Positions 15,918-63,662 of a stretch of 64,000 nucleotides of DNA are shown in pieces. Each line of letters begins with the position of its first letter. Positions within the stretch are counted from its first letter, which is position 1. Under the pieces are notes generated by a model, which saw only the letters and a program-made list of their open reading frames with translations, ran no database searches and had not been told where the DNA came from. The position numbers and the translations under genes were made by a program. Origin of the DNA: Hadesarchaea archaeon (GTDB lineage Archaea; Hadarchaeota; Hadarchaeia; Hadarchaeales; Hadarchaeaceae); the NCBI GenBank assembly GCA_029259175.1, contig JAPDJH010000018.1, positions 5,747 through 69,746 of the forward strand. The letters run 5' to 3'.

Positions 15918-17885
15918 ATGCTTCACTTCCTTGGCTTTGTGATGTGGGTAATCGGAGGCGTGATGTTGATTCCTAGCGCGCTCGCGCCTGTTTTTGGAGA
16001 AAGCCATCTCATACCGGTATTCGTAATTCCGGCACTTGTAGCCATAGGTCTCGGTTATTATATGCGCAGAAAAACTTCTCCTCGAGAGCTGAGCCTGGGT
16101 GAAGCGATGGTGACCGCCACCGCCGCTTGGATCATTTTCGCGGTTTTTTCTTCTGCCCCATACGTGGCGGGGATGGGAATGCCCATAGAAGATGCCTATT
16201 TCGAAAGCATGTCAGGGCTCACAGCGACCGGATTGACCATGATACCGCAGGATCCGGTGGCAAACCACCTCGTAATAAGTGAGGTGGGCATTTCCGCCGA
16301 CAACGTCTCTTATATAGAACTGTACAATCCGACAGAAAGCGCGGTCGACCTTTCTTCTTCTCTTGTGTGGATAGCAACAGAAAATCGTGTAAAGTTAGAA
16401 AACATCGTTTGGTACACAAGTACCATACATTCTCACGGGTACTTTTTGCTGGCCGCTTCTGAGTCCGTATGCGGCGTTCAAGCGGATGCTCTGTTTACCA
16501 CCTCGCTGTCATCCGTTGGCGCTGTGGCCATATCCACAACCTCCGCAAGTTTTGAACACGCCACAGACCGTGTTGCTTGGGGAGGATCTACAGCGGATGA
16601 TTTTGCAGAGGGCTCCAGCTCACCCCACGTTTTATCTCCGGGCGACTCTTTGGAGCGCCGCATCTCTAAGCAGCTCTCCGAAAAGGCCACATTGAAGTAT
16701 GAATGGGGAAACGCCTATGACACAGATATGAACTCCGACGATTTTGTTTTCCATAGCGGTGTGTGCGATCCAGAAAATTCTGGCGTGCAAAAGAACCCCA
16801 TATTGAACATCGAACGCTCGCCTCGCACCATCTTGTTCTGGCGGAGTTTGACTGAGTGGGTGGGTGGACTGGGAATTATAGTGCTGTTCTTGGCGGCGCT
16901 TGTCGGTTTCGGAAAAGCGGCTCGAAAAATGTACGTGGCGGAAGCCAGGACCCAATTCGTGGAACCCAACGTCACGCAGACTGCAAGATCTCTGTGGGGG
17001 ATTTACATTATTCTTACGCTAATCGGAGCAACGCTCCTGTACCTCACGTCATTGCCTAACGCCTCACTGTTTGAATCGGTTAACCATGCCATGACAGGAA
17101 TTGCCACGGGCGGTTTTTCTGTGCGTAACGACAGTTTCGCAGGATATGCTTGGCCGGTCCTAACGGTGGCCATTCTCATCATGATCGCTGGAGCTACCAG
17201 TTTCGCTGTGCACCGCATGATCTTCCGTGGTGCTTGGCGAGAGTTCTTCAAAAATGTGGAAGTAAAATTTATGCTAGCGCTGATAGCGGTGTGTAGCGCG
17301 CTGTTGATTTTGAGCGTTGGAATAACTGATTCGTTTTTCCAAACAACCTCTGCACTCACCGGCACCGGATTTTCTACGGCGAACTTGGCACATTGGGGAG
17401 ATGGACAGAAAGGTGTGCTCATTTTGCTCATGGTGATCGGTGGCGGCTACGGCTCAACCTCGAGTGCTCTAAAACTCATTCGAGTACTCATCCTAGCGAA
17501 AGCCATTCACTGGATGATTAAAAAGAGCTTCTTGCCCGATCGAGCCGTTGTACACATGAAGCTCGGTGGTCGGATATACTCGGAACATGAAATGATGGAA
17601 GCTGCCATTTATGCCTTTCTTTACTTGCTTGTGATGATAGGCGGTGCAGTGGTTTTGATGAGCTTTGGCCACTCAGCCATCGATTCCTTGTTCGAATCTG
17701 CATCCGCACAAGGAAATGTTGGACTATCGGTGGGCATCACATCTCCCTTCATGCCCTTAGCTGGAAAGATCACTATGATCATCCAAATGCTGGTCGGGCG
17801 GTTGGAGATAATCCCGGTCATCGCTTTGCTAAGCTATCTAATAGTGGAGCTTCCTAGAAACGTTCGGCGCGCCTCGCAGGTCTGA
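15918..17885 (+). CDS. trkH: TrkH/KtrB-family potassium transporter with an inserted lamin-tail domain in an extracytoplasmic loop
   Basis: TrkH-like membrane core (MSGLTATGLT selectivity-type loops, GG motifs). About 190 aa, roughly 16240-16820, read VISEVGISADNVSYIELYNPTESAVDLSSSLVWIATEN...HGYFLLAAS, a lamin-tail-domain signature. The protein is 655 aa against about 480 for a typical TrkH. Confidence 0.75.
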   Translation: MLHFLGFVMWVIGGVMLIPSALAPVFGESHLIPVFVIPALVAIGLGYYMRRKTSPRELSLGEAMVTATAAWIIFAVFSSAPYVAGMGMPIEDAYFESMSGLTATGLTMIPQDPVANHLVISEVGISADNVSYIELYNPTESAVDLSSSLVWIATENRVKLENIVWYTSTIHSHGYFLLAASESVCGVQADALFTTSLSSVGAVAISTTSASFEHATDRVAWGGSTADDFAEGSSSPHVLSPGDSLERRISKQLSEKATLKYEWGNAYDTDMNSDDFVFHSGVCDPENSGVQKNPILNIERSPRTILFWRSLTEWVGGLGIIVLFLAALVGFGKAARKMYVAEARTQFVEPNVTQTARSLWGIYIILTLIGATLLYLTSLPNASLFESVNHAMTGIATGGFSVRNDSFAGYAWPVLTVAILIMIAGATSFAVHRMIFRGAWREFFKNVEVKFMLALIAVCSALLILSVGITDSFFQTTSALTGTGFSTANLAHWGDGQKGVLILLMVIGGGYGSTSSALKLIRVLILAKAIHWMIKKSFLPDRAVVHMKLGGRIYSEHEMMEAAIYAFLYLLVMIGGAVVLMSFGHSAIDSLFESASAQGNVGLSVGITSPFMPLAGKITMIIQMLVGRLEIIPVIALLSYLIVELPRNVRRASQV

Positions 17886-18450
17886 CGAACAGGTTGTACT
17901 TGTCCACGCCTTGGAGCTCCATCTCTATACGCTTGGCTATCAGAGACTTGGGATTGGCAAGACCCTTAACCCGCTCTTCCAGATCTTTAAAATCTGAGAA
18001 TGGTTTCTTGTTTCGCTCCTCCAAGATGGCCCACATCAGCTTCTTCCCAATCCCCGGAATGAGTTCGAGCTGGTGAAAGCGCGTCGTTACTGGACCAGCG
18101 CGGTTGAAAAACTCTACGTATTTTTCCGGTGCCTCCTCAATTATCTTCTCGATCACGGCTGGTAGCTCCGCTTTTGCGGCTGCGGTAAGATCACCGTAAC
18201 CGATTCTCCGTCGGATCCGCTCTACCTTGTCACGCCCCTCTTTCCCAATGTTTATTTTCTCTTGGGGCTGGAGCGTTACGCCCTTGAGCGGTACGACTTC
18301 AAGCAAAGTGAAGAAACCCGTTCCTATCACTTGAGCCACAGGCTCTCGCAAGTGAATGGGACGGGTATCACTTGGGCTTCCTTGGGGTAGGAAATCCAGC
18401 ACTATGGCGAAATCCTCATACTTTTTTTCAACCAAGCCAACCAGCTCCAC
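17854..18450 (-). CDS. DUF655-family RNA-binding protein
   Basis: Conserved archaeal gene order L21e-RpoF-DUF655. N-terminal OB/S1-like region and C-terminal HhH-like region. Confidence 0.6.
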   Translation of the reverse strand: MELVGLVEKKYEDFAIVLDFLPQGSPSDTRPIHLREPVAQVIGTGFFTLLEVVPLKGVTLQPQEKINIGKEGRDKVERIRRRIGYGDLTAAAKAELPAVIEKIIEEAPEKYVEFFNRAGPVTTRFHQLELIPGIGKKLMWAILEERNKKPFSDFKDLEERVKGLANPKSLIAKRIEMELQGVDKYNLFVRPARRAERF

Positions 18451-18454: not shown

Positions 18455-18790
18455 TCACTCGGTATGTTTCTTCACTATCTCCAAAATTTGATTGATTTCA
18501 GAATCCTCCAATCTGGTTCTCGTTTTTTGAAAAATTACTTCTACGTCCTGCTTTGTTTTTGGTAACAAATCGATAATCGCGACGATCTGCGCTTCGTTTA
18601 GTTTCTCGATCTGCGAGAGCTCTTCTCTCATCTTCCTCGCGGTCTCCGCGTCCACACCGGCAAATTTCTGTGCATAATCATATGCTAGCCGTTGAGAGTA
18701 CTCCATCTCCCCTTTCTTTTGTTTTTCTAAAAGCTCCAGCGCCTCTGGAATCGTGGTCGGTTTTTCTTCAACCACCCTTTTTCCGATCAC
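18455..18790 (-). CDS. rpoF: DNA-directed RNA polymerase subunit F (Rpo4/RpoF)
   Basis: About 111 aa, located between L21e and DUF655 as in most archaea. Helical HRDC-like C-terminus. Confidence 0.65.
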   Translation of the reverse strand: MIGKRVVEEKPTTIPEALELLEKQKKGEMEYSQRLAYDYAQKFAGVDAETARKMREELSQIEKLNEAQIVAIIDLLPKTKQDVEVIFQKTRTRLEDSEINQILEIVKKHTE

Positions 18791-19083
18791 TATCTCACCA
18801 CCCGGAGGTGCTCAGGCGATGCTATTATTTTCTTTATCTTACCTCCATCCTTTATCTCTACTATATAGGCACGCCCCCTTTTCTCTATTACGAGACCTAT
18901 CCTCCCATGGTATCTGTGGTGTGGTTGTCCCTTGTGAACCGATGGATTTATGAAAATGGTGACTTTTGCACCTATGGGTAGCTCTTGGGTTGCCTGAACC
19001 ACTGAACCTAGTCCTCGACGTCTCGGCGGTTTTGTGAACTTTCCTCTACCGGCGCTTCTTAGTCCGCGAGACCGTCTAGCCAT
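18790..19083 (-). CDS. rpl21e: 50S ribosomal protein L21e
   Basis: MARRSRGLRSAGRGKFTKPPRRRG...HHRYHGRIG: the L21e signature, 97 aa. Confidence 0.85.
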   Translation of the reverse strand: MARRSRGLRSAGRGKFTKPPRRRGLGSVVQATQELPIGAKVTIFINPSVHKGQPHHRYHGRIGLVIEKRGRAYIVEIKDGGKIKKIIASPEHLRVVR

Positions 19084-19136: not shown

Positions 19137-20313
19137 GGTTCTCTTCGGAACTCTTGGCCCGCAGATACTTTCGCCCACCCCTCTCTCCCCGAAACCCTCA
19201 TAATTGGATAGAACGAACCTCGGGCGAATGCGTGTCGTCAAGACCATCCGGGCGGAGCTCTGGGCCCTCACCAAGCGCAAGCTTGAGTGCTTGCTCGATC
19301 TTGAGAGCGAGTGGAGGCGCGCCCTTGAGCTCAAACGCACGTACCGGGAGCTCAGGGAGTCGACGCGCCTGCCCTCCTACTACTGCAGGGCCCTGGCGTG
19401 GAAGGTCCGCGGGCGGCAGTCCCCCATCCTGCTCGACCGGGACTCCTTCGAGCTCAAGCCCACCTCCAACCGCCTAGCCCGCTACTTCATCAGCATTCCC
19501 ACGCCCCGCGGGAGGGTGTGGTGCCCCCTCAGGCTCTGGCGCGAGCACGAGCGGTTGCTCGAGTCGGGAGTCAGGATTAGGGACTCGAAGCTGGTCGTGC
19601 GGAAGGGGAGGTTCTTTCTCCACCTCACGGTTGAAAAGAAAATCACGCTCATCCCTCGACCCAACGTGGTCGCGGTCGACCTCGGAGAGCGCTTCCTCGC
19701 GGCGTCCGTGGCGCTTCGCGGGGGAGCAGTGGTCTCAGCGGTCCTGCTCGGGAAGGAGGCGAGAGGGGTGAGGCGGCACCACGCGTGGCTGCGCAGGCGC
19801 CTGGGGGAGCGGAAGCTCCTGCGCGTCATCAGGCGAATCGGGCAGCGGGAGCGGCGCGCGGTCGACCAGATCTGCCACCGGGTCGCGAAGCGCGTGGTCG
19901 AGTTCGCAGTCCGCCACGAGGCCGTCATCGTGATCGGGGATCTGAAGGGGCTGCGCGAGCGCTGCAGGGGGAAGGGGAAGCGCCTGAATCGCATCGTTGG
20001 CTCCATGCCCTACCACCGGCTCAGGCGCTACATCGAGCACAAAGCGGCTTGGTTTGGGATCCCGGTGTACATAGTGAGCGAGGCGCACACGAGCTCCCGC
20101 TGCCACCGCTGTGGGGCCGAGGGATCGAGGCCCAGCCAGGGGCTCTTCAGGTGCAGGGCATGCGGGCTCGAGTACAACGCGGACCTGAACGGTGCCGCAA
20201 ACCTCGGAAAGAGGTTCCTGGAGCAGCGCTCCGGGAACGGGGCCGTGTGGGTTCCGGCCCTAAAGGCGGCCTAGAGCCGCCAACTTCGGAGGTCAAGGCT
20301 TCCGAAGAGAACC
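19137..20313 (+). mobile_element. TnpB-only insertion element bounded by perfect 14-bp terminal inverted repeats and a 9-bp target-site duplication
   Basis: Left repeat GGTTCTCTTCGGAA (19137-19150) is the exact reverse complement of right repeat TTCCGAAGAGAACC (20300-20313). TAACTAGCC sits immediately outside both ends (19128-19136 and 20314-20322). The interior is about 65% GC against about 52% for the flanks. A subterminal hairpin CTTCGGA-ggtcaaggc-TTCCGAAG lies at 20282-20307. Confidence 0.8.
19204..20274 (+). CDS. tnpB: TnpB (IS200/IS605 OrfB-family RuvC-like RNA-guided nuclease)
   Basis: 356 aa. RuvC-I (VVAVDLGE), RuvC-II (VIVIGDLKGL) and a C-terminal zinc finger with RuvC-III (CHRCGAEGSRPSQGLFRCRACGLEYNADLNGAANL). 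No tnpA in the element. Confidence 0.85.
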   Translation: MDRTNLGRMRVVKTIRAELWALTKRKLECLLDLESEWRRALELKRTYRELRESTRLPSYYCRALAWKVRGRQSPILLDRDSFELKPTSNRLARYFISIPTPRGRVWCPLRLWREHERLLESGVRIRDSKLVVRKGRFFLHLTVEKKITLIPRPNVVAVDLGERFLAASVALRGGAVVSAVLLGKEARGVRRHHAWLRRRLGERKLLRVIRRIGQRERRAVDQICHRVAKRVVEFAVRHEAVIVIGDLKGLRERCRGKGKRLNRIVGSMPYHRLRRYIEHKAAWFGIPVYIVSEAHTSSRCHRCGAEGSRPSQGLFRCRACGLEYNADLNGAANLGKRFLEQRSGNGAVWVPALKAA

Positions 20314-20316: not shown

Positions 20317-21663
20317 CTAGCCCATCTTTTTCAACAATTTGCTCCAAGGACCAAACCTAGGGATTCTGCCTCGTGCAAGATTTTTTATAAGCTTCTGCAC
20401 CAGCTCGTACTGCTTTAAGAGTTCTTTCACGTCGGCTTCGCTGGTCCCAGAACCGCGGGCAATCCTTTTGATCCTAGAAGCATTTAGTATGCGGGGGTTC
20501 TCCAGCTCCTCCGGGGTCATGGACTGCATAATGACCTTGAATTTCTTCAGCTTCTCTTCTCCTATTCGGAACTGCTCGTCGGGAATAGACACGCCCACGC
20601 CCGGAAGCATTTGCATGACTTTTTTCAGAGGACCCATTTTGCTTAATGCTTCTAGCTGATCATAGACATCTTTTAGGGTGAGCTTTCCCGCCAGCAAATC
20701 CTTTTTATCCGGAATCCGGATTTTCTCCTCTTTCACCACTTCCTCGATTTTTTTCAACAGAGTCTCCAAATCGCCCATGCCAAGCAAACGAGACAAGAAC
20801 TTTGCTGGGGCATATGGTTCTAAGTCTTCTAGATGTTCCCCTGTGCCGATGAACTTGATAGATGCGCCCGTCGCGGCCACAGCTGAGAGCGCGCCTCCAC
20901 CTTTGGCAGTGCCGTCGAGTTTGGTTACGAGAATAGATCCGATAGCGGTGGCCGCGTTAAAGGCTTCGGCCTGTGCCTTTGCTTGTTGACCGATGGTGCC
21001 GTCAATCACCAGCATTACTTCGTCTGGTCGGATTTGCTCCGCTAACTCTCGCATTTCCTGCATGAGATTTATCTCGCTTTTATGACGCCCTGCCGTGTCG
21101 ACGATAATGAGCTCCATTCCTTGTCTCTTGAAATGTTGCACGCCTTCCTTTGCTATTCTAACGGCGTCTTTGGTTTTGGGGTCTCCGAAAACTGGGAATC
21201 CCCCTTGCTCTCCCAGCTGAAGCAATTGTTCGTAAGCGCCCGGACGATACGTGTCGGCACAGATAATCCCCACCTTGAAGCCCTTTTTCTTGAAATAATA
21301 CGCGAGCTTGGCCACCGAAGTGGTTTTCCCACTTCCCTGCAAACCAACCATCATCAAAACTTTGGTTTTCCCCGGCTCCACTTTCAGCTCCGCGGGTTTG
21401 CCCAAAAAATCTGAGAGCTCTTCATACACCACCTTTATTATGTGGGCTCGCTTGTCTACTCCCGGCAACGGCTTTTCTTCGAGCGCTCGCTTTTCGATGC
21501 GTTTGGAAAGAGAAAGCACTAGTTTAACGTTGACATCAGCTTGGAGCAGAGCGCGCTGGACATCTCTAACGAGCTGCTTGATCGTTTGCTCGTCCACATG
21601 CGGGCTTTTCGCCAGCTTCTGGAGAGCAGAGTGTAGCGCCTTTCCCAGTCTTTCTAGCACCAT
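20317..21663 (-). CDS. srp54: Signal recognition particle protein SRP54
   Basis: N domain, G domain (GLQGSGKTTS, DTAGR) and a Met-rich M domain (MMQSMTPEELENP). Confidence 0.9.
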   Translation of the reverse strand: MVLERLGKALHSALQKLAKSPHVDEQTIKQLVRDVQRALLQADVNVKLVLSLSKRIEKRALEEKPLPGVDKRAHIIKVVYEELSDFLGKPAELKVEPGKTKVLMMVGLQGSGKTTSVAKLAYYFKKKGFKVGIICADTYRPGAYEQLLQLGEQGGFPVFGDPKTKDAVRIAKEGVQHFKRQGMELIIVDTAGRHKSEINLMQEMRELAEQIRPDEVMLVIDGTIGQQAKAQAEAFNAATAIGSILVTKLDGTAKGGGALSAVAATGASIKFIGTGEHLEDLEPYAPAKFLSRLLGMGDLETLLKKIEEVVKEEKIRIPDKKDLLAGKLTLKDVYDQLEALSKMGPLKKVMQMLPGVGVSIPDEQFRIGEEKLKKFKVIMQSMTPEELENPRILNASRIKRIARGSGTSEADVKELLKQYELVQKLIKNLARGRIPRFGPWSKLLKKMG

Positions 21664-37693: not shown

Positions 37694-38704
37694 TTGGACA
37701 TGACAGCAAACAAATTACATTATGAGTGTAAGCATGGCGTGAAGATCTATAACAGTGATGTGCTAGATGTCTACGAAGAGTGGGAGAGCCCAGATGTGAT
37801 AATATCGGATGGACCGTATGGTTTGAATGCTTTCTATGGTGATTGCAAGGTACCAGATGAACTTCCAGCTTGGTATGAACCCCATATAAAAGTTTGGTCT
37901 GAAAAAGCTAGGCCGGGCGCTACTCTATGGTTTTGGAATAGTGAAATAGGATGGGCGTTAGTACATCCTGTTCTAGTGAAGCATGGTTGGACTTATGTTC
38001 GCTTTAATGTCTGGGATAAGAGTATAGCACACGTAGCTGGAAACACCAACACAAAAAAATTGAGGGAGTTCCCCTGCGTCACAGAAGCATGTGTTCAGTA
38101 TGTAAAGGAGGCAAAAATAGGAAATAAAACGCTTAAGGAATGGCTAAGGAGCGAATGGGAAAGAACTGGACTTCCACTCTATGAAGCTAATAAGGCGGCG
38201 GGTGTAGCCAACGCTGCAACTAGAAAGTGGTTGACTAAAGATCATCTTTGGTATACTCCACCACCAGAACAGTTTGAAAAGTTAGTAGAATACGCTAACG
38301 CTCATGGTAGGTCTACAGGAAGACCATATTTTTCGATAGACGGCAAGAAGCCAATTACAAAAGAAGAATATGCGAGATTGTTGCCTAAATTCCATTGTAA
38401 AGTGGGAATAACCAACGTCTGGAAAGAGCCACCACTTCATGGTCCTGAGAGGATAAAAATAAAAAAAGGAGGAAAGTCTGCACATCTAAATCAAAAACCA
38501 TTAAAGCTTATGAGACTCATTATTGAAGCCTCTTCAGATAGAGGCGATGTAATTTGGGAACCATTTGGTGGCCTATGTTCGGCCACTGTGGCTGCCCATC
38601 AATTAGGTCGTAAATGTTATGCTGCTGAGATAGAAAAAGAATTTTTCGAAATGGCTATTAATCGTCTAAAATGTATATGTTCGGAGGGGTCTTTGCGTGT
38701 CTGA
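37694..38704 (+). CDS. DNA methyltransferase, beta-class order (motif IV-like at the N-terminus, motif I at the C-terminus)
   Basis: N-terminal VIISDGPYG, a DPPY-like catalytic motif with Pro-to-Gly substitution. C-terminal VIWEPFGGLCSATVAAHQLGRKCYAAEIE, the FxGxG SAM-binding motif. An 8-nt overlap with the downstream nuclease gene. Confidence 0.6.
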   Translation: MDMTANKLHYECKHGVKIYNSDVLDVYEEWESPDVIISDGPYGLNAFYGDCKVPDELPAWYEPHIKVWSEKARPGATLWFWNSEIGWALVHPVLVKHGWTYVRFNVWDKSIAHVAGNTNTKKLREFPCVTEACVQYVKEAKIGNKTLKEWLRSEWERTGLPLYEANKAAGVANAATRKWLTKDHLWYTPPPEQFEKLVEYANAHGRSTGRPYFSIDGKKPITKEEYARLLPKFHCKVGITNVWKEPPLHGPERIKIKKGGKSAHLNQKPLKLMRLIIEASSDRGDVIWEPFGGLCSATVAAHQLGRKCYAAEIEKEFFEMAINRLKCICSEGSLRV

Positions 38705-39506
38705 GAAAGAGCCCCAACTTAGGGAACCGTCCAAAGAATGGCCCCACTACGAGTTGTGGATGAGAACCAGAAATTTGCTAAAAGAATTGCCTACGTATTT
38801 TAAAAGCACATTGAATATAACATCTGCCGTTAATGTAACTGAAATATATGCCTTCGGCACAGCTCTTAGCTATACGATTGAGGAAGAGGTTGTGAACACT
38901 CTCAACAAGGAAAAAGAACTGCTAGATCCTGATGGAAAATATTGTGAATACTCCTTTACTAGACAGGCACAATCATTCCCCGATGTGTTATTTCTAAATT
39001 CAGAAAAAGGTGACATAATAATGGGAATAGAGCTAAAATCGTGGTATCTCTTGGCGAAAGAGGGTGAACCGAGTTTTCGTTATAAAGTCACGCCTAGCGC
39101 GTGCGCCTTACAAGACTTGTTAGTTGTGGTACCTTGGGCCCTATCCAACGTGGTAACCGGGAATCCTATAGTTTTTGAACCATTCGTAATATCTGCTAGA
39201 TATGCGGCGGAATATCGAAATTATTGGTGGAAGCACTTGAGAAAGGCAGAGGGCAACACGGATATTTCCTCGCCCGACGGAGTCAGTTCTTATCCTTCTA
39301 GCCGTGAAAGGATAGACGATGAACCTGCTTATGATCCTGGTAGAAACTTTGGAAGATTAGCAAGGACAGAAATTATGGATAAATGGGTAAAGAGATGTAA
39401 AAAGGAAAAACTACTCGGAATAGAGATAGAAAAATGGATTGAATTCTTCAAAACGGGTAAAATCAGACATAAGGAAATTTGTGAAAAACGGCTGAAGTCA
39501 TCATAG
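38697..39506 (+). CDS. PD-(D/E)XK restriction endonuclease candidate
   Basis: FPDVLFLNSEKGDIIMGIELKSWY carries PD...(E)LK. Translationally coupled to the methyltransferase. AT-rich. Confidence 0.55.
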   Translation: MSEKEPQLREPSKEWPHYELWMRTRNLLKELPTYFKSTLNITSAVNVTEIYAFGTALSYTIEEEVVNTLNKEKELLDPDGKYCEYSFTRQAQSFPDVLFLNSEKGDIIMGIELKSWYLLAKEGEPSFRYKVTPSACALQDLLVVVPWALSNVVTGNPIVFEPFVISARYAAEYRNYWWKHLRKAEGNTDISSPDGVSSYPSSRERIDDEPAYDPGRNFGRLARTEIMDKWVKRCKKEKLLGIEIEKWIEFFKTGKIRHKEICEKRLKSS

Positions 39507-39515
39507 CACCTGCTC

Positions 39516-40961
39516 TTAGGGGCCCCCTGTTTCAGTCTCCTTTGTCCAACATTGTACTTTCATGACAATTAGGACAAGAATTATGCTAGCGATTGAGAGG
39601 ATAGATATCGAAGGACCAATTATGAAACCAATCCCACCATAAAAAAATATGAAAAATAAGCCGATCAACCCGGATGTACTCACCACGCCGATCATATTAC
39701 GGAACTGTCTATTTTCCATAAATTGTATCCCGCAGATACAACATCTAATTCCTCTTTCGGCAAAAAATATCAAAGACATCATAACAAAGATTGCCCAAAT
39801 ATTTTTGTCCAAGTTTTGTAGAAGAGCCAAAATTATATAAAGACCAGAAGTGATGGTTGCAACATAAATAAAAGTGAGAATGCCTAGAAGAGCGGAAGAT
39901 ATAGATTTTGATGTAAGTTTATACTGAAAAATTTGCAAGATTGCGCGCTTTGCTGTTTCCTTTTCTTTTGGGAAGAAAATTGATAAAACCACATAAAAGA
40001 GAAGTAAAAATACAAACCAAACCAAAATGTTAGTGATGAGGACCTTGAAAGACGATAAGAAAGTAAACTCGCTTAGAAAAACATTTTCGTAACTCGTTTT
40101 ACCTGCGGTTACTTTAACTACCTTCTCGGCTCGATATCCAATCATTCCCCCCGATTCAATGATTATTTTGTATTCGCCTTCACCCAGATTGAAAACGCAC
40201 GCACCGTTCTCATCAGTCAAGAATGGTGCCGAACTCCGCGTTCTCACCACACGTACTCGTGCGTTTGGCACAGGTTCGTTTTCCTTTCTAACACTGATGA
40301 TTAACTTGCCGGTTCTCTTTACGTACCGAGTGGTAACATCATGTGCTGTGCCAGAGTCGTCAACGGCGTATACGAAAAAGAGTTGTTCTCCTCCTCCATT
40401 TTCATTCTCTGGACGCTCGTAAAATGCAGGATCGTTAATAATGCCTCTCTTCCCAGTTGCTGGATTAGTTTTGCTTGGGTCAACATGTATCCAATCTCCA
40501 TTAATTTTTACCTCAGCCCAAGCATGATCCAGACCCAAATTGTACACAACCCGGGCATTATCTATGCCTGCTGTTTTTGCCAATTCTACGAACAGCCTTG
40601 CAAACTCTTCACATGCGCCGTGTTTGAAGAACATTATCCATTGTGGATGCATAAGTCGAAGGTACGTGACAGGGATCCTATCTAATAGAAAATATAGCGG
40701 CGGTATGGAGCTATGCGGACGCTTGTAAATGATTTTCCCCTCAAAATTTCTATCCTCCCACTCAATAATCGCATTGATAATGGACAAATGATTCGAATTC
40801 TTGCTACCGATTTCAGTCCCGACTTTTTGTATTTCCGCCTCTCCCAATATTTGGACGACAAAGTAGGGAAGCCAGAAGGTAGATAGAACGGTTAGTAATA
40901 GAAGCGCTGTCGCTAGATAGGTCTTGAACTTTTTCCACTTTCTTTCTGTGTTTGATGGCAT
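39516..40961 (-). CDS. Membrane-anchored transglutaminase-like cysteine protease-fold protein
   Basis: GACEEFARLFVELAKTAGI...DHAWAEV...GDWIHVDPS is a Cys-His-Asp transglutaminase-like core. An N-terminal TM, a beta-sandwich region, then more than six TM helices. Confidence 0.6.
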   Translation of the reverse strand: MPSNTERKWKKFKTYLATALLLLTVLSTFWLPYFVVQILGEAEIQKVGTEIGSKNSNHLSIINAIIEWEDRNFEGKIIYKRPHSSIPPLYFLLDRIPVTYLRLMHPQWIMFFKHGACEEFARLFVELAKTAGIDNARVVYNLGLDHAWAEVKINGDWIHVDPSKTNPATGKRGIINDPAFYERPENENGGGEQLFFVYAVDDSGTAHDVTTRYVKRTGKLIISVRKENEPVPNARVRVVRTRSSAPFLTDENGACVFNLGEGEYKIIIESGGMIGYRAEKVVKVTAGKTSYENVFLSEFTFLSSFKVLITNILVWFVFLLLFYVVLSIFFPKEKETAKRAILQIFQYKLTSKSISSALLGILTFIYVATITSGLYIILALLQNLDKNIWAIFVMMSLIFFAERGIRCCICGIQFMENRQFRNMIGVVSTSGLIGLFFIFFYGGIGFIIGPSISILSIASIILVLIVMKVQCWTKETETGGP

Positions 40962-55682: not shown

Positions 55683-56654
55683 TCACTCTTTTGCTAGATC
55701 GTGTTGAAACACTTCTTGGATGATCTCCATGACTTCACGCCTCGTTGGTCTGCGCGGAAAGTTGTAGATGGGACCTCGGGGAGACTCGTTGTAAAAGGGA
55801 CGATTACATCCAGGACAGCCAGAAGTACGGAAGGGTTCGCCTGATTCGATGGTGCTAAGCAAGACTCGTTCACTTACACCAAAACTCGTGAGTTGGCCAT
55901 TCTCGAACACCATTTCACCAACGGAACTCACATCTGCTTGGATGAGGTAGTGGGCGAGCTGGATGCGCCGATAGCTGGCGAGATCCGGGCGCGGATGATC
56001 CGCAAGAGCGGTGCCGGGGATGGGAGTGAAAGCGAATAAGCCGACGGTGATCCCGCGATCGTGAAGCCACTGAATCATCCTGACCGCCTCCTCCTCGGTT
56101 TCACCCAGCCCAATGATTAGGTGAGTGGTGACCGCCCCGGGGAATTCGTCGGAGGCGAGCTGGAGGGCCCGGAGGTGGGCTTCCCAGGAGTACCCCTCTT
56201 TTACTTGGCGGAAGACCCTCGGGGTGCAGGCGTCGAGCGGAAAACATATTCGATCAGCGCCAGCGCGTTTCAGCTCCCGCATCTCGCCTCGGGACAGCGG
56301 TCTTATAGACACAGAGGTGGGCAGATCCGCGGATCGCTTGAGTTTAGAAACTATGAGCTGGACATCCTCGACCACCCTTGGATAGTTCACACTTTGCACG
56401 CACACCCGGTCAAAGCGATTGACACGCCGCTCCATGCGCTCTAGAACGCGGTTGAAATCACACGGAGGCCACAGAACACGAGAGAGCATATGCGGATCCG
56501 AAGAACTGCGATTGGCTTGGGGGCAGAACTTGCAGTTGGCATGACACCGTCCCTCATAGTAGGTGAGAAAGTGGGCGGTCGTGGGAGGTACGTCGACGCG
56601 GCCATTCCACAGACCGAGCAGGATTCCCGTACCAAATGCCACACGGACTCTCAC
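55683..56654 (-). CDS. Radical SAM protein, LipS2/BioB-like candidate
   Basis: CHANCKFC (CxxxCxxC) near the N-terminus. Translationally coupled to a second radical SAM gene and next to LplA. Confidence 0.55.
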   Translation of the reverse strand: MRVRVAFGTGILLGLWNGRVDVPPTTAHFLTYYEGRCHANCKFCPQANRSSSDPHMLSRVLWPPCDFNRVLERMERRVNRFDRVCVQSVNYPRVVEDVQLIVSKLKRSADLPTSVSIRPLSRGEMRELKRAGADRICFPLDACTPRVFRQVKEGYSWEAHLRALQLASDEFPGAVTTHLIIGLGETEEEAVRMIQWLHDRGITVGLFAFTPIPGTALADHPRPDLASYRRIQLAHYLIQADVSSVGEMVFENGQLTSFGVSERVLLSTIESGEPFRTSGCPGCNRPFYNESPRGPIYNFPRRPTRREVMEIIQEVFQHDLAKE

Positions 56655-57520
56655 GAGAACTCCTCCAAGAGAGATCTAGGCAAGGAACAGCAAGCGTTGA
56701 TGGTTTTTATTTTGAAGCCGCTTCTGCGCGCTTCCTTAACGGTGAGGGGAGAGGGCAACACCACGCGGCTCGCCCCTGCGCGGAGGACAGCTAGCTCTAG
56801 TCTGGAGCGGCCGTTCCCGCGCGGGCGCATGCAGCCCAGAGCCAGTTCCGTGCGAGGCATGCGTTCGCGTGCATAACGAACAACTTTCACGACATCTGAG
56901 GTGGACGGAGGCTTTGCGGCAAAGAGGGGGGTTCCGGGAGTGGGAGTGAGAATCAAAAACACCAGCACTTCCGGCCCGACTTCGCGCGCGATCTCTACCG
57001 CCCGGAACTCTCCAGAAATCTTGCCGGCATTCAGACCAATACAGATGTGTGGCACCACATGGGGGACATGCTTTGACATGGTGCGCAGCGCTGAGGAATA
57101 GTGGTCGGTCGTCTTTTCGCTCCCCAAGATGGTCGATATTGTCTGGTCATCACCAATTAGATCAAAATCCGCAATGTCCACACCGGCGCGCCCAAGTTCG
57201 CGGATCAGCCAGGATGGGGGGAGACCCGGATGGATGCTCACGATCAAATTCGTTCTTTGTTTAATGCGCTCAATCGCGTCGAGAAAGGGTTCGAACGGCA
57301 CATAGCCTTGGCGGTTGAAACCGCCGCTCAACAAAACACCGCGCGCTCCTTTCGAGGCGAAACGCTCGCACAGCTCCAAGAGCTTACGAGGATCTGAACA
57401 CGGAATCATGCCGGAGAGATAGTGAGCGTTGCAGTGCTTGCAGCGGAAGGCGCAGCGCGTTCCAGTGATTGAAATGGTCGGAAAGGCCGGGTGGGGACGA
57501 AAGATAAGCAACCGTGACAT
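56651..57520 (-). CDS. Radical SAM protein, LipS1-like candidate
   Basis: CAFRCKHC (CxxxCxxC) near the N-terminus. A 4-nt overlap with the downstream radical SAM gene. Confidence 0.55.
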   Translation of the reverse strand: MSRLLIFRPHPAFPTISITGTRCAFRCKHCNAHYLSGMIPCSDPRKLLELCERFASKGARGVLLSGGFNRQGYVPFEPFLDAIERIKQRTNLIVSIHPGLPPSWLIRELGRAGVDIADFDLIGDDQTISTILGSEKTTDHYSSALRTMSKHVPHVVPHICIGLNAGKISGEFRAVEIAREVGPEVLVFLILTPTPGTPLFAAKPPSTSDVVKVVRYARERMPRTELALGCMRPRGNGRSRLELAVLRAGASRVVLPSPLTVKEARRSGFKIKTINACCSLPRSLLEEFS

Positions 57521-57560
57521 CCATCTCGTATGGGGTCAACAACACAAATAAGTAACGCGG

Positions 57561-58364
57561 TCAGCGTTTTCTTAACCACTCGCTAGATGCGTACTTGGAG
57601 CGGAGCTGGGCGGCGAGTTCGAGCTCCTCCTGTGAGAGCTCTCCCTCGACCAAGCGAACGCCGAAAGCGTCCTCGAATCCCCTCACCATCGCCCGGTGCA
57701 CCTCCTCGAAATCTGGTCTCCGCCCGAGTTCGCGCTCAATGGTCGTCACGCGTTCGAAAATCGAGCTGACGAACTTGTCCGAGATCTTCTCGGGGCTCAC
57801 GCGCAGAAGTTCAAACATCCGGCGCACGTCCGGGCTGATCAGGATTGTGCCGTGCTGGAGGACAGAACCCCAGCGGCGGGTTTGAGCGCTGCCGGAAATC
57901 TTTTTTCCTTTCACCTGGACGTCGTTGACCGGCCTGAATTCCGCATCCACCCCTAGGTTTCTAAAACCACTCACCAAGCCCCCGCAGATCAGCCTGTAGG
58001 ACTCGATGATGTCGCCGGGCACGTCCGATTCCTTGCACACGACGCTGTAGGTCAATTCGCCGTGATGGTCGTGGAAGACCGCCCCCCCTCCGGTTATCCG
58101 GCGAACCACATCGACACCGTAGCGCCTGGCCGCATCGAGAGCCACTTCGCGCTCAAGGCTCTGAAAGTACCCAATCGACACGGCCGAGGGGCTCCAGCGG
58201 TAAAAACGCACGGTGTTCGGGACTTTTCCCTCCGCGTTGAGCTTGAGGATCGCCTCGTCCAGCGCCATCGCCGTAAAGGCATCGTCGACTCTGAGCGGGA
58301 GAAGGCGCCACTCGGATTTTGGAGAGCCTCCTGCATTTGTTATATTTATAACAACTGAACTCAT
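57561..58364 (-). CDS. lplA: Lipoate-protein ligase A, catalytic N-terminal domain protein
   Basis: BPL/LPL catalytic domain pattern RRITGGGAVFHDHHGELTYSVV, with the lysine-containing C-terminal loop. Confidence 0.75.
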   Translation of the reverse strand: MSSVVINITNAGGSPKSEWRLLPLRVDDAFTAMALDEAILKLNAEGKVPNTVRFYRWSPSAVSIGYFQSLEREVALDAARRYGVDVVRRITGGGAVFHDHHGELTYSVVCKESDVPGDIIESYRLICGGLVSGFRNLGVDAEFRPVNDVQVKGKKISGSAQTRRWGSVLQHGTILISPDVRRMFELLRVSPEKISDKFVSSIFERVTTIERELGRRPDFEEVHRAMVRGFEDAFGVRLVEGELSQEELELAAQLRSKYASSEWLRKR

Positions 58365-58654
58365 TTCTGCCCACCGCGCGCTGCTCGCAAAATCGCTTCC
58401 ACCCAGTGCTCCGGCTCCACCATGGGGGTCTGCACACCGCCACTATAGAACTCTTTCACAACGGCCAACAGGTTTTCACGACCAACGGGAACACCGATCA
58501 GCTTCTGTTCGAGCTGTTCAAGCGCGTCTTCTGGGTACATGAAAAAATCGCCGCCCAAAGAAATCCGGACAATACGATCGTTCTCGGTTTCGAGCTCGAC
58601 TTTGATCACGCCTTTTGGGGCCTTAAACTCGGCGTAGCCCATCAGATTTTCCAT
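58361..58654 (-). CDS. Lipoate-protein ligase C-terminal domain protein (LplB-like)
   Basis: 97 aa, overlaps the lplA stop, consistent with the bipartite archaeal LplA-N/LplA-C arrangement. Confidence 0.55.
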   Translation of the reverse strand: MENLMGYAEFKAPKGVIKVELETENDRIVRISLGGDFFMYPEDALEQLEQKLIGVPVGRENLLAVVKEFYSGGVQTPMVEPEHWVEAILRAARGGQK

Positions 58655-58758
58655 AACTATCCACGACTAAAAGCATTATTCAATCAACAAAAATTGAAAT
58701 TTTCCAAATTTGGTGCACAAACAAATATAAAGTGATTGGGTCCCGAAACGCGGTGTTC

Positions 58759-59391
58759 CTAAAAGCTGCCTTTTTCACGACACTTGCCTGAACTGCACCA
58801 TTCCTTGACTGGACAGTCACCACATGCCCTGCGCTTACAGAACTCCAACCCCACTCTAACGAGGGCTGACTCAAACTCGCTCACTTCTGAAAGCTCGAGT
58901 TTCTTCGCTACCCGCTCTGCAAGCGCACATGGCTTTGTCTTCGCTTTCGGCCAAACTCCGCGGAGCTCTCGAAGAAAGATGTTGACCGCTACTGGACCTA
59001 TACCTTTCAGCCTCATCAGATCACGCTCGAGTTCACTGGAGTTTCGGGCTTGTCGATAAATGTGCTCAAGCCCTCCGCGTTCCTGCAGCGCCTTAACAAG
59101 ATCCAGAAGAATGGATGCCGTCGAGAAATCATAGCGCACGTAGCCCCCGGCATCGAGGGCATCGACGAGCGCATCCCACCCGGCTCGCTGGATGGACTCG
59201 GGCGTCGTGTATCCCCGACGCTCGAACTCGCGGAAGGTGCGCTTGGCGATCTCGGCCGAAATCCGCTTGGCGAAGAGGACCGATGCGAGCAGCCACTTGA
59301 AGCGGTCGGCGGGCTTGCGCAGATCCAGACCCAGCTCCTGCGAATAGGTGGGGATCCGGGCGAGCGCTACGCGCAGTCCTCTGCGAACCAC
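58759..59391 (-). CDS. HhH-GPD-family DNA glycosylase-like protein with a C-terminal 4-Cys loop
   Basis: LKGIGPVAVNIFL hairpin-helix-hairpin and a C-terminal CKRRACGDCPVKEWCSSGKC. Confidence 0.55.
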   Translation of the reverse strand: MVRRGLRVALARIPTYSQELGLDLRKPADRFKWLLASVLFAKRISAEIAKRTFREFERRGYTTPESIQRAGWDALVDALDAGGYVRYDFSTASILLDLVKALQERGGLEHIYRQARNSSELERDLMRLKGIGPVAVNIFLRELRGVWPKAKTKPCALAERVAKKLELSEVSEFESALVRVGLEFCKRRACGDCPVKEWCSSGKCREKGSF

Positions 59392-59856
59392 TCACCTCAC
59401 CAGCTCGGGGGTCACTGCCCACACCAAAGCCCACCTGCCAGCTTCGTCACGCTCAAAGCAGAAGACCGCGCCCTGGGTGAAGCGCACGGGCTGGCGCTCG
59501 GGATCGCCTGTTAGCAGCAGCCCTGCGAGCTTTGCCAAGTGAGGAAGATGACCAACAAGCATCAGATCGGATTGCTCCGTACGTAGTTTCTCAGCCCAAG
59601 GCCTCGGATCGTCGAGCGGAGTCAAACCAGTGGCCTCCTGCACTCCTTGTTCAGAGTTCAAGGCACCAGATAGAACCTCAGCCGTTTGTTTAGCACGGAG
59701 CTTCCCGCTGTGCACGATTCTGGAAACGCTTAACGACAGTGGTTTGAGGAAATTTGCAATGCGCTCGATGTCTCTTCTGCCCTCATCAGAAAGCGGGCGA
59801 GCGGGGTCTTCTTGTTCTGGTTTTGCCTTCGCGTGTTGAACAAGGTAAAGCTTCAT
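59392..59856 (-). CDS. sixA: Phosphohistidine phosphatase SixA
   Basis: MKLYLVQHAKAKPEQEDPARPLSDEGRRD: the RHG-family histidine phosphatase N-terminus. Confidence 0.7.
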   Translation of the reverse strand: MKLYLVQHAKAKPEQEDPARPLSDEGRRDIERIANFLKPLSLSVSRIVHSGKLRAKQTAEVLSGALNSEQGVQEATGLTPLDDPRPWAEKLRTEQSDLMLVGHLPHLAKLAGLLLTGDPERQPVRFTQGAVFCFERDEAGRWALVWAVTPELVR

Positions 59857-59984
59857 AGTGTACCACCCTTTTCTTCTTGGGAAAGAAATCAAAAAAAGGC
59901 TGGTTCTGGGCTGGAAATGTTTTATTACCTCAGCGGATTTTTCATGTGGTCCAGAAAAATCGAGTGTTCAAAAGCTCTGGTCTT

Positions 59985-60767
59985 CTACCTCCAACGCACT
60001 AGGATTTCTTCTCGTCCAAACCGTGCTCTGCCCAGCGCCAAAAGACCGACACTCAAACACGCCAACAGCGCACCGAAAATCACTATCGAAAGCCAGTTCA
60101 GTCTCACAATACCAGCAGTAAAGAGAAAGTAGAAACCCATCGGGGGTAGGACACTCAGCGCTCCCAACTGCATAGCGGCGCGCACATCGCTCACCTTAGC
60201 CGAAATCACAACACAGAAAGAAGTCGCTGCCAAACCCACCAGCGGGCAGAAGACCAGCAAAACCACCAGCGAAATCCAGTCGGGGAGAAGCAGGCGTCCG
60301 AAGAGCGGGAATGTCAGTGCGTCGACGATCACCACAAAACCCGCAAAGGAAATTAAGGTTGAAAGCATTGCTGGAACGAACGCGCCCATGAGTTTACCCA
60401 CCAGCAGTTCGGCATCGGTGGTGGGTGTTGCGAGGAGGGGCTCGAGCTGCCGGTTCACCTTCTCTCCAACGAATGTGTATGAAGAGATGACCGACGGGAT
60501 GATCGCCGGTAGAAGCATAAACATAAGCACCGACATTTGAACTAGACCTAGTGCCATGGCCTGCTTTGGCTCCAGTCCCGGCACAGCAAAGGAGGGCAAG
60601 TCGTTTTCCGTTATCTGTTCGCCCAACAGCACCGGGTAGAGCATGGAAAGGGGGATCAAAACTGCAAAAATAAGCGGGATTCCTATCAGGCCATATAACA
60701 CGTAGCGGTGCTTGCGCGCACTTGCTATGTCCTTGCGCGCGATGGTCCAAACCCGATCCATCCTCAT
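59985..60767 (-). CDS. ABC-2 type transporter permease
   Basis: Six-helix ABC-2 permease pattern. The likely start MRMDRVWTIARKD overlaps the stop of the ATPase (ATGA at 60764-60767). Confidence 0.65.
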   Translation of the reverse strand: MRMDRVWTIARKDIASARKHRYVLYGLIGIPLIFAVLIPLSMLYPVLLGEQITENDLPSFAVPGLEPKQAMALGLVQMSVLMFMLLPAIIPSVISSYTFVGEKVNRQLEPLLATPTTDAELLVGKLMGAFVPAMLSTLISFAGFVVIVDALTFPLFGRLLLPDWISLVVLLVFCPLVGLAATSFCVVISAKVSDVRAAMQLGALSVLPPMGFYFLFTAGIVRLNWLSIVIFGALLACLSVGLLALGRARFGREEILVRWR

Positions 60768-61687
60768 GTTGATTCCACCACCTTGAGATAAGCCTCCTCT
60801 AAGGAACTCGCTTGCTTCATCCACACGATTTTTCCGCCAGCTTTCACAATGGCGCTTGCTATCCGCGGATTCACTTCGCTCGAGTCGTCAACTTCCACCG
60901 TCAGCGTTCTTTTCCCTCGTTTTACCTTTCGCACCCCGCCGATCCGCCTCACAGCCTGTAGAATACGGGCGGTTATGCGTTTCAGCTGAATCTCCACCCT
61001 CTGGGTGCCGAATTCGCGCTCGAGTTCAGTGGGGGAGCCAACGGTGAGAAGAGAGGTTTTCAAAATCGCGACACGATCACAGAGCTGCTCCGCCTCGTGC
61101 AGATTGTGAGTGCACAACAATATGGTCCGTCCCTTTCGCCTTAGCTTCCGGATGAACTCGCGCACCACCTTGGCTGACTCGGGTGCAAGAGAAGCCGTTG
61201 GTTCGTCTAGGAACAGAACCTCTGGATCGTGTACAAGCGCTCTTGCAATCGCCACCTTCTGTTGCATCCCCCTCGAGAACCTGCCCACGGGTTCGTTCCG
61301 GCGCTCCCATATGCCCAAGAGCTCAAGCAAATCTCGGATTCTCCTCTTTCGCTCGCTGGCTGGTACGCCGTAAAGCTTGGCGTAGAAGTCGAGCGTGTAA
61401 TACGCGCTGAGTTCTGGGTAGAGCCCTGGATTCTCCGGCAACAGCCCGACCACCTCGCGGATCTTGAGCGCATCTTGGATGATATCGTTGCCAGCAACGA
61501 GCGCGGTTCCGGCCGATGGGCGTATCAGGCAGCTCAGCATGCGCACGGTGGTGGTTTTCCCCGCGCCGTTGGGGCCGAGTAGCGCAAAGACCTCCCCGCG
61601 CCGGACCCGGAGCGAGAGATCACGAACGGCCACCGTGTTGCCGAATTTCCTTGTGAGAGCACGCGTCTCGATTGCGGGCTGTGTCAT
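60764..61687 (-). CDS. ABC transporter ATP-binding protein
   Basis: Start at MTQPAIETRAL. Walker A GPNGAGKTT, signature FSRGMQQKV, Walker B LFLDEPT. Confidence 0.85.
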   Translation of the reverse strand: MTQPAIETRALTRKFGNTVAVRDLSLRVRRGEVFALLGPNGAGKTTTVRMLSCLIRPSAGTALVAGNDIIQDALKIREVVGLLPENPGLYPELSAYYTLDFYAKLYGVPASERKRRIRDLLELLGIWERRNEPVGRFSRGMQQKVAIARALVHDPEVLFLDEPTASLAPESAKVVREFIRKLRRKGRTILLCTHNLHEAEQLCDRVAILKTSLLTVGSPTELEREFGTQRVEIQLKRITARILQAVRRIGGVRKVKRGKRTLTVEVDDSSEVNPRIASAIVKAGGKIVWMKQASSLEEAYLKVVEST

Positions 61688-61999
61688 CTCTAGAACCTGC
61701 ACTTTTGAAGTAAAAAGGAAATCGAGCAGGGCAAGGTCCAACACAGTGCCCCTGTGTCCAAATCCACCTACGAAAAAGTTTATGAGAAATATGACAAAAA
61801 ATCGAACGAAGCGCAAGTAACCGTGTGGAAGGAGTTGGGGTCTTACCCCGTTGGTAGAAAAAATGTGACATCCACCACTGTGTAAGCGCGGTTATGCCCA
61901 CATCCCGTTTGATACCAAATTAGCACTCCATTTCCACAGATGTCAGCCTCTATTAGTTGGGGCCCCGACTCCTTCTGCTCGCACGGGCGTCCAAACTGA

Positions 62000-63061: not shown

Positions 63062-63067
63062 TCCTTT

Positions 63068-63586: not shown

Positions 63587-63662
63587 CCAAGTGTAAGAAG
63601 ACTGACTCCTCTGAAAAAGCTTTTACCTGGACCGGCAGCCCAGCCCGTTGACAAGTTCCGTT

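Follow-up and report, generated by a model that had tools for sequence, protein, structure and literature searches.

A predicted lamin-tail domain is an optional cassette in the TrkH potassium transporter of Hadarchaeales archaea

Results

A trkH gene with conserved transport features

The window, i.e. the whole 64-kb stretch of Hadarchaeales DNA that was analysed, contains only one copy of trkH, and the features of this gene are listed in Table 1. The open reading frame matched the Pfam TrkH family PF02386 with 181.9 bits (E = 2e-53), passing the curated threshold of 27 bits. The NCBIfam model TIGR00933 gave 242.5 bits in two stretches and did not reach its cut-off of 331 bits; this shortfall is at least partly explained by the insert splitting the match and by the divergence of the archaeal protein, and the score is no argument against membership of the window protein in the SKT family. 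When the full-length AF2 model (pLDDT 89.6, pTM 0.89) was compared with known structures using Foldseek, the TrkH structures 6v4l, 6v4k and 3pjz were retrieved with E-values of about 1e-15 to 2.5e-15 (TMt 0.81-0.84) and KtrB, HKT and KdpA ranked after them.

Table 1. Features of the trkH gene, numbered from the first position of the window. VpTrkH, TrkH of V. parahaemolyticus.
Feature	Position	Strand	Remarks
trkH gene, 655 codons and stop	15918..17885	+	SKT-family K+ transporter, D0 and four M1-P-M2 repeats
N-terminal part: D0 (2 TM), D1-M1, D1 pore helix and filter	15918..16244	+	aligns to VpTrkH residues 8-117
D1 filter segment TATGLTMI	16221..16244	+	filter glycine is Gly105; translation checked
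LTD cassette, P110-L296, 187 aa	16245..16805	+	absent from ~465-aa orthologues; translation checked
C-side linker NIERSPR	16806..16826	+	directly before D1-M2; residues 298-303 co-vary with insert presence
D1-M2 through D4-M2	16827..17882	+	aligns to VpTrkH residues 117-479

In an alignment of 26 homologues, residues F95, E96, G100, T102, T104, G105 and L106 around the first filter were invariant, and invariant filter glycines were likewise found in the homologue alignment for D1 (G105), D2 (G398/G399), D3 (G484) and D4 (G602). Also conserved are the D3 intramembrane loop (GGGYGSTSSALK) and the GRLEI motif, whose Arg628 is the D4-M2 arginine; both align to their equivalents in VpTrkH (PDB 3PJZ, 4J9U, 6V4J-L). 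The window protein has these features in common with VpTrkH, along with the D0 part, the four M1-P-M2 repeats and the filter glycines. Judged from its sequence, this Hadarchaeales gene encodes an intact TrkH K+ channel/transporter in which all transport hallmarks are kept. In the Trk system, TrkH has TrkA as its cytoplasmic RCK partner. Unlike in VpTrkH, no TrkA gene is adjacent to trkH in the window, and no RCK-like Rossmann ORF (a TrkA candidate) was found in the 64-kb window, searched by regular expression only, or in the syntenic loci.

Position and topology of the cassette

The borders of the insert were set by alignment with insert-free homologues and VpTrkH, where the insertion point corresponds to I117. 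The cassette begins four residues past the D1 filter glycine and stops just before helix D1-M2, so that it is flanked by the filter segment TATGLTMI and by NIERSPRTILFWRS (the start of D1-M2), and it includes short linkers on its N side (PQDPVAN) and C side (DPENSGVQKNPIL). The segment of ~190 aa that a previous sequence-only reading had placed at 16240-16820 (residues about 108-301) was thereby refined to the 187 aa between P110 and L296 (16245-16805). Compared with VpTrkH, the window protein carries a folded domain of 187 aa in place of a linker of ~7 residues between the D1 filter and D1-M2. To our knowledge, none of the solved TrkH and KtrB structures contains an extracytoplasmic domain.

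In TrkH, which is built of M1-P-M2 repeats, the loop between D1 and D2 is intracellular (PMC6987127). Homology to solved TrkH predicts that the cassette sits in the D1 P-to-M2 linker on the extracytoplasmic side, as had been proposed from the sequence. This placement on the outer face is supported by the alignment, by the topology cited above and by a positive-inside charge bias: the flanking RRKTSPRE and GKAARK are cytoplasmic, and the insert has 25 D+E vs 9 K+R residues. From chain connectivity only, the domain would lie on the rim around the pore mouth. The linkers were modelled with pLDDT values of 93 or more, which together with the high pTM of the full-length model suggests that the domain may have a defined placement on the core.

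The cassette is predicted to be a complete lamin-tail domain

The Pfam lamin-tail domain (LTD) profile PF00932 matched the window protein with 25.0 bits (E = 2.6e-5, profile positions 5-74 of 109) and the insert alone with 28.0 bits (E = 3e-6), both below the gathering score of 34.3 bits, and several of the orthologous inserts carry a precomputed PF00932 match. A phmmer search of 1.84 billion representatives with the insert gave 1113 matches at E <= 1e-3; the sampled matches scored 45-160 bits against the Pfam profile, i.e. above its cut-off, and one of them (P0133, LTD score 159 bits) was matched with E = 1e-31. A profile built from 13 orthologous inserts retrieved 179 proteins, among them stand-alone LTD proteins with E-values down to 4e-36, and in the 120 matches listed PF00932 was present in all but one short fragment. 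The insert could be aligned end to end with stand-alone LTDs, with the motifs VISE, ELYNPT and GN..N..DF invariant. As judged by these searches, the sequence match between the insert and LTDs is far beyond chance. Recovery of the domain by profile search, on which the sequence-only reading depended, succeeded with respect to E-values, for PF00932 as well as the insert profile, and fell short with respect to the PF00932 gathering score.

When the insert was modelled separately a beta-sandwich was obtained (pLDDT 91.4), and in all models, including that of the full protein, the insert was folded with pLDDT values of 90-98. In Foldseek searches the insert matched the tails of lamins B1, A/C and B2 (probability 0.97-1.0, TMt 0.5-0.68) at a modest E-value of 5e-3. 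The Ser/Thr/Ala-rich linker that had been read from the sequence at about residues 195-215 turned out to correspond to LTD beta-strands (E201-206 and E217-221, pLDDT > 90) that align with strands of stand-alone LTDs. The confident models (pLDDT > 90) rule out disorder as well as a low-complexity linker. Taken as a whole, the predicted cassette is one complete and folded lamin-tail (Ig-like beta-sandwich) domain, and the main claim made from the sequence, namely that TrkH contains a genuine LTD behind its first pore loop, was borne out by the PF02386 match on the one hand and by phmmer, profile and fold on the other.

The Foldseek lists also contained FlaF and FlaG, stator proteins on the S-layer side in archaea, which is a weak argument for a surface-binding role of the domain.

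Comparison with other LTD proteins

Stand-alone, membrane-anchored LTD proteins (PF00932; 230-360 aa, mainly from Patescibacteria/CPR and archaea) contain the same long-type LTD in full length, at 30-36% identity and ~90% coverage. They share with the insert the motifs VISE, ELYNPT, GN..N..DF and PQNS, and they are similarly acidic. Their LTD follows an N-terminal signal/anchor helix and is often followed in turn by a Pro/Thr-rich stalk, whereas in TrkH the domain is joined at either end to a polytopic channel. The nearest relatives of the insert are such N-terminally anchored stand-alone proteins, an observation that we counted towards reading it as a surface module.

The insert of the window protein is acidic (net -16, pI 4.4), as are the orthologous inserts (net -7 to -23 and pI 4.1-4.6 in 17/17). 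One explanation would be that an acidic sandwich at the outer vestibule acts as an electrostatic cap or K+ antenna, raising the local cation concentration or pre-filtering or shielding the pore and thereby improving K+ capture at low external K+. A start only four residues from the filter glycine, purifying selection on the insert (see below) and the osmoadaptation genes (MscS, trehalose synthesis) that adjoin the locus in related genomes are all compatible with such a role. However, stand-alone LTDs that are not attached to a transporter are similarly acidic (net -7 to -34), which means that the charge is no adaptation to TrkH. Furthermore, the window's protein lacks the acidic DDD cluster that some lineages have, close relatives live without the LTD, and a position over the pore is a prediction from chain connectivity only. 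We consider an antenna function unlikely.

In prokaryotes, LTDs are functionally poorly understood (PMC6085458); they are found on proteins that are secreted or anchored at the surface and have been proposed to target these to the membrane or envelope (PMC6085458; PMC5118699). With its predicted extracytoplasmic position, the TrkH insert resembles the LTDs of surface hydrolases (ExeM/NucH nucleases, ComEC/ComA-like metallo-beta-lactamase proteins and Hvo_1477), which are extracytoplasmic accessories on membrane-associated proteins, and in ExeM the LTD is non-essential for the core activity (PMC6085458; PMC5118699). The hydrolases differ in that the partner is a nucleic-acid enzyme and the LTD is terminal rather than nested, and with a net charge of -16 a DNA-binding role is less plausible for the LTD of TrkH.

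Distribution of the TrkH-LTD architecture

TrkH with the cassette in the same in-frame architecture was found in at least 19 proteins from Hadarchaeales, originating from independent NCBI, JGI, ENA and Logan assemblies. This recurrence, together with purifying selection on the insert, speaks against the insert being an assembly error, a product of two genes fused in frame, an intein or a mobile element. The presence/absence pattern itself would be the one argument for an origin of this kind, which is extremely improbable. No terminal direct or inverted repeats were present at the borders in three loci and the fold is that of an LTD and not Hint/intein, by which a mobile element or intein was rejected.

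No further TrkH/KtrB with an insert at the D1 site was found in the best 150 of the 1113 phmmer representatives or in 120 of the 179 profile matches; the word-indexed searches, that with the insert profile among them, unexpectedly missed the TrkH-LTD proteins themselves. The long matches among those listed in a GTDB scan for such proteins were tandem trkH paralogues and not inserts. No second LTD gene was found within the window or the syntenic loci. A literature search yielded no description of a TrkH with an LTD, and in the Hadarchaeota papers listed nothing on TrkH was found. Given that we found no paper on it, an LTD nested in TrkH appears to be undescribed. With near-identical relatives lacking it, the domain is a predicted surface module that a TrkH ordinary in other respects may have or lack.

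Alleles with and without the insert at a single locus

The insert-bearing and insert-free genes share the same gene neighbourhood (Rce1-like, Auto_anti-p27, UPF0147, SIS, trkH, DUF655, Rpo4, L21e and SRP54), and near-conspecific genomes hold the insert-free allele at the same locus. Paralogy of the two forms was ruled out, given this common syntenic locus and the single trkH in the window. A comparison of two loci (L001 and L002) showed DNA that was 96-97% identical except for a clean indel of 594 nt and an adjoining patch of 60 nt with only 76.7% identity, in which the insert-free allele was 93% identical to an insert-free allele of another lineage. The divergent patch beside the indel is a recombination footprint (binomial P = 2e-6). 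In a tree of the core the insert-bearing and insert-free forms were interleaved. These results show that the two forms are alleles of one syntenic locus which are swapped between close genomes by homologous recombination.

The alignment columns most strongly tied to the insert state were residues 298-303 of the linker (I, A/R, T/S, P, R/K in insert-bearing and V, G, V, A, P in insert-free proteins). Among TrkH positions, other extracellular loops included, only this linker and residue 80 were associated with the insert state. Given that the domain is dispensable and that no other part of TrkH co-varies with it, the domain can be regarded as an optional add-on and not as an integral gate.

A polymorphism of this type, with the state swapped by recombination between near-conspecific genomes, might also be expected if viruses, toxins or symbionts used the exposed LTD as a receptor, or if it served as a shield or decoy against them, and if frequency-dependent selection maintained both states. 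The predicted surface-exposed location and the enrichment of N-glycosylation sequons in some inserts (up to 8 per ~200 aa, vs 2-3 in the 465-aa core) would agree with this idea, but diversifying selection was not seen (dN/dS 0.11-0.13), no virus or defence gene was consistently linked to the locus in the genomes examined and we came across no TrkH known to serve as a receptor. We regard this idea as quite unlikely.

Selection on the insert

The ratio dN/dS was 0.11 for the insert vs 0.087 for the core in one comparison and 0.13 vs 0.13 in a second one, and the insert has been kept across lineages in which the cores have diverged to ~62% identity, with insert identities broadly tracking those of the core. 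Purifying selection acts on the cassette as strongly as on the membrane core. Within the lineage of the window, the rate of non-synonymous change was about fourfold higher in the insert than in the core (dN 0.46 vs 0.11), and in this clade the protein identity was 55% for the insert vs 82% for the core.

The faster protein evolution in the window's clade, the many insert-free alleles interleaved with insert-bearing ones, loss by recombination with insert-free alleles and the absence of co-adaptation elsewhere in TrkH are what one would expect of a tolerated passenger, i.e. a one-off insertion into a permissive loop that has no function of its own and is repeatedly lost. Selection would on this account only preserve foldability, since a misfolded insert would wreck an important transporter. 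Against it stand the equal dN/dS of insert and core in the two comparisons, the retention of the insert across such diverged lineages and the canonical LTD motifs, which remain invariant. A passenger without function is in our judgement improbable, to the same degree as the antenna discussed above.

Discussion

The explanation that we tentatively favour as a whole is that the gene encodes a TrkH with an optional, outward-facing LTD as accessory module that is likely surface-binding. The structural and evolutionary part of this explanation is very probable, while a binding or tethering function of the LTD is possible but doubtful. The sequence-only suggestion that an envelope or extracellular ligand tethers or gates the transporter is a hypothesis. 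In such a protein, K+ conduction and cytoplasmic gating by TrkA would proceed as in an ordinary TrkH, and the LTD would most likely bind a component of the cell surface or the surroundings, candidates being an S-layer or envelope glycan, the membrane surface or an extracellular polymer. Through such binding the transporter would be positioned or tethered and its outer vestibule conditioned, and the LTD would not be needed for transport. The benefit of the LTD may be niche-dependent, and we propose that both alleles persist because of this. The dispensability of the domain in close relatives fits a tolerated passenger equally well.

A stronger version, in which the LTD would truly sense or gate from outside the cell, with an external ligand or envelope component bound at the outer mouth, is very unlikely. 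If true, envelope tension, attachment or polymer binding would be coupled to K+ flux, the protein would be the first SKT-family transporter to be controlled from the outside in addition to by TrkA from the inside, and recombination would switch a regulatory module on and off between strains. All regulation of Trk, Ktr and HKT transporters that we know of comes from the cytoplasmic side.

In eukaryotic K2P channels a structured extracellular cap, formed by a pore-flanking linker, is present above the outer mouth of the K+ pore. The resemblance to the LTD of TrkH is an analogy only, since the K2P cap is an obligatory, helical and non-homologous element of the M1-P1 linker, whereas the LTD is predicted to be a beta-sandwich, lies in a P-M2 linker and is optional.

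A folded domain that starts four residues from the filter and is predicted to lie outside represents a natural experiment on the tolerance of the outer vestibule of a K+ pore, and TrkH-LTD may show how a transporter couples to the cell surface. In addition, the poorly understood prokaryotic LTD gains a tractable context, given that both alleles are found in nearly isogenic backgrounds and that the contribution of the domain is directly measurable. The clean exchange of the cassette is direct evidence that homologous recombination reshapes protein architecture in uncultured deep-subsurface archaeal populations.

Host protein and position of the insert

The window contains a single trkH gene, whose product was identified as TrkH by Pfam PF02386 (E = 2e-53, 181.9 bits); NCBIfam TIGR00933 gave 242 bits, under its subfamily cut-off of 331, and the source names of the homologues point to Hadarchaeales/Hadesarchaea. 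An AlphaFold2 model of the full-length protein, based on 120 homologues (mean pLDDT 89.6, pTM 0.89), superposed in Foldseek on the solved TrkH of V. parahaemolyticus (E = 2.5e-15, TMt 0.81-0.84), with KtrB, HKT and KdpA as the next matches. The filter glycines G105, G398/399, G484 and G602, the intramembrane loop GGGYGSTSSALK of repeat D3 and the D4-M2 motif GRLEI were all kept. Judged by these alignments the gene is an intact TrkH with every transport hallmark kept, and K+ conduction and gating by TrkA would be expected to proceed as usual.

Compared with homologues of ~465 aa the insert is a clean insertion, bounded by TATGLTMI before and NIERSPRTILFWRS after. Residues 3-109 aligned with residues 8-117 of the V. 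parahaemolyticus protein and residues 295-639 with residues 117-479, which places the insertion point exactly at I117 of the latter, four residues past the D1 filter glycine and directly ahead of D1-M2. Given that the TrkH repeats are M1-P-M2 and that the D1-D2 loop is intracellular (PMC6987127), the P-to-M2 linker lies on the outer face, and by homology to this topology the insert would be extracytoplasmic, at the edge of the pore mouth. This location fits the charge pattern: on its cytoplasmic side the segment is flanked by basic loops, RRKTSPRE and GKAARK, and the insert itself has 25 D+E versus 9 K+R. The TrkH dimer interface is formed by D4M1 and D3M2b (PMC6987127), and since D1 takes no part in it, the insert is expected to lie away from the interface.

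Coordinates of the trkH locus, of its surroundings and of loci in other genomes (L numbers)
Feature	Sequence	Position	Strand	Remarks
trkH ORF	window	15918-17885	+	655 aa; insert inside single long ORF
TATGLTMI	window	16221-16244
Lamin-tail insert	window	16245-16805	+	P110-L296, 187 residues
DUF655 gene	window	17854-18450	-	convergent with trkH
trkH/DUF655 3' overlap	window	17854-17885		32 nt
L21e	window	18790-19083
TnpB/Cas12f1-like ORF	window	19204-20274	+	356 aa; Pfam PF07282 TNB domain, E 1e-19
SRP54	window	20317-21663
GC outlier	window	38001-40000		GC 0.40
GC outlier	window	56001-64000		GC 0.55-0.61
HK97-type phage capsid gene	L087	6402-7780		PF05065
Tandem trkH paralogues	L028	3001-7304		Methanosarcinales MAG
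Osmoadaptation cluster	L001	8039-15325
Osmoadaptation cluster	L002	7222-14428
Osmoadaptation cluster	L003	9236-16510
Osmoadaptation cluster	L004	14102-21398

The insert is a single lamin-tail domain

The sequence-only reading had proposed a lamin-tail domain (LTD) inserted after the first pore loop of TrkH and followed by a Ser/Thr/Ala-rich linker. Recovery of the domain by profile was significant but, with Pfam, incomplete: the LTD profile matched the window's own insert with E = 3e-6 over profile positions 5-74 only, at 25-28 bits, which is under the 34.3-bit threshold, whereas a profile built from 13 orthologous inserts reached matches with E down to 4e-36. The latter retrieved 179 proteins, and among the 120 listed all but one short fragment carry PF00932; the best were stand-alone, N-terminally anchored LTD proteins of 230-360 aa, mostly from Patescibacteria. 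A phmmer search of 1.84 billion representative proteins with the insert gave 1113 matches at E<=1e-3 and 111 at E<=1e-10, and 10/10 sampled matches cleared the Pfam cut-off (45-160 bits).

The insert aligned end to end (~90% covered) with stand-alone LTDs, with VISE, ELYNPT and GN..N..DF invariant, and was modelled as all-beta with pLDDT 90-98 both in the full-length protein and alone. Foldseek matched it to the tail domains of lamins B1, A/C and B2 (probability 0.97-1.0, TMt up to 0.68, E about 5e-3), and the archaeal FlaF and FlaG were also among the matches. Taken together, this evidence indicates that the entire insert is one long-type LTD; the proposed domain and its place were thus borne out, and the supposed linker proved to be beta-strands of the LTD fold.

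An optional, recombining cassette

The insert was found at the identical site in 17 full-length homologues, which are 650-671 aa long and 55-74% identical, as well as in two fragments (P0040, P0044), and all insert-bearing TrkH among the homologues found are confined to one Hadarchaeales subclade. No terminal repeats flank the cassette, and an artefact, an intein or a mobile element is excluded as its explanation. TrkH-linked LTDs were not among the best matches of phmmer or the insert profile. LTD-TrkH counts from the word-indexed searches, made with the insert or with its profile, are unreliable, since these miss the insert-bearing proteins P0002-P0017 although they are in the database. Long, insert-like trkH matches among the GTDB matches listed were rejected as tandem paralogues; two or three such copies, which can pass for insert-bearing genes in a locus table, occur in a Methanosarcinales MAG and several bacterial genomes (L028, L043, L045, L055).

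Insert-bearing and insert-free proteins were interleaved in the core tree, and pairs differing in the insert were 93% (P0008 with, P0028 without) and 96% (P0010 with, P0037 without) identical. Paralogy of the two forms was rejected, as both occupy one syntenic locus. The D1 P-to-M2 linker of Hadarchaeales homologues (window residues 109-304) fell into three length classes: 19 aa (MIS-NVE or MIS-NVEGVAP type, which distant outgroups have as well), 26 aa (MIPTDPxSPF-NIE or MIPTDPxSPF-NIETCP type) and, where the LTD is present, about 206 aa. The insert is flanked by sequence of the 26-aa type (MIPxDP... PxxNIE), so the 26-aa loop represents either the state before the insertion or the scar of a deletion.

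The DNA of L001 (insert) and L002 (no insert) was 96-98% identical across ~13 kb, the difference being a clean in-frame indel of 594 nt. Identity fell to 76.7% in the 60 nt left of the indel, and the 120 nt to its left held 16 differences where the background rate is 3.2% (binomial P = 2e-6). Within the 60-nt patch L002 shared 93% identity with L004, which is also insert-free, comes from another lineage and has a background identity of 81-88% to L002. By its sequence, the patch is the trace left by a short gene-conversion tract in which an insert-free segment replaced an insert-bearing one. In a second pair, L085/L086, ~92% identical either side of the indel, the insert-free junction MIS|NVESTAR amounts in essence to the local insert-bearing allele with the cassette taken out. 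Insert identities broadly follow core identities, which fits one ancient gain, then vertical inheritance with recurrent loss or replacement. Conflict-driven surface polymorphism is an improbable account of this alternation. Such natural, nearly isogenic allele pairs offer a means to test the role of an extracytoplasmic LTD.

Selection and possible function

The dN/dS of the insert equalled that of the core (0.11 vs 0.087 for L001/L003; 0.13 vs 0.13 for L085/L087), showing that the LTD is selectively maintained. In the window lineage the insert evolved ~4x faster (dN 0.46 vs 0.11, synonymous sites saturated), with 55% identity to P0002 compared with 82% for the core. The only core positions tied to insert state were residue 80 and the adjoining linker residues 298-303, so that the LTD behaves as a self-contained module. 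A merely tolerated passenger domain is rather unlikely. All inserts (17/17) were acidic (net -7 to -23, pI 4.1-4.6), as were stand-alone LTDs, and an electrostatic antenna or cap for K+ is about as doubtful as a passenger.

These results show an intact TrkH bearing a folded, selectively maintained yet dispensable LTD, placed by homology on the outer pore rim. Prokaryotic LTDs are nearly always found in secreted or surface-anchored proteins, and membrane/envelope targeting or nucleic-acid binding have been proposed as their function (PMC6085458; PMC5118699; PMC4486849); in vivo, ExeM does not need its LTD to degrade extracellular DNA (PMC6085458). The LTD of TrkH could serve as an optional surface-interaction module, and we tentatively favour a putative role in which it binds the envelope or a ligand, thereby positioning the transporter or conditioning its vestibule. 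TrkH and LTD are each already known families, and a literature search found no paper pairing 'lamin tail domain' with TrkH; the nested architecture, the site beside the selectivity filter and the recombining presence/absence behaviour appear undescribed.

Neighbourhood of the locus

The overlap between the 3' ends of trkH and the DUF655 gene is kept in all syntenic loci. The TnpB/Cas12f1-like ORF lies between L21e and SRP54 with a local GC of 0.56 versus about 0.50; given that L21e and SRP54 adjoin each other in L088, the closest relative, and in L001-L004, it represents a lineage-specific insertion of IS200/IS605 type. The insert-bearing L087 has a phage capsid gene after L21e at the same junction, which may be an integration hotspot. 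In L001-L004 the trkH locus is followed by an osmoadaptation cluster (MscS channels, trehalose-6-phosphate synthase and phosphatase, TreT-like glycosyltransferases); the window and L088 lack such genes at this position, and there an NTP-transferase gene directly follows SRP54. Two further stretches of the window deviate from its GC of about 0.50 and may be foreign or specialised regions.
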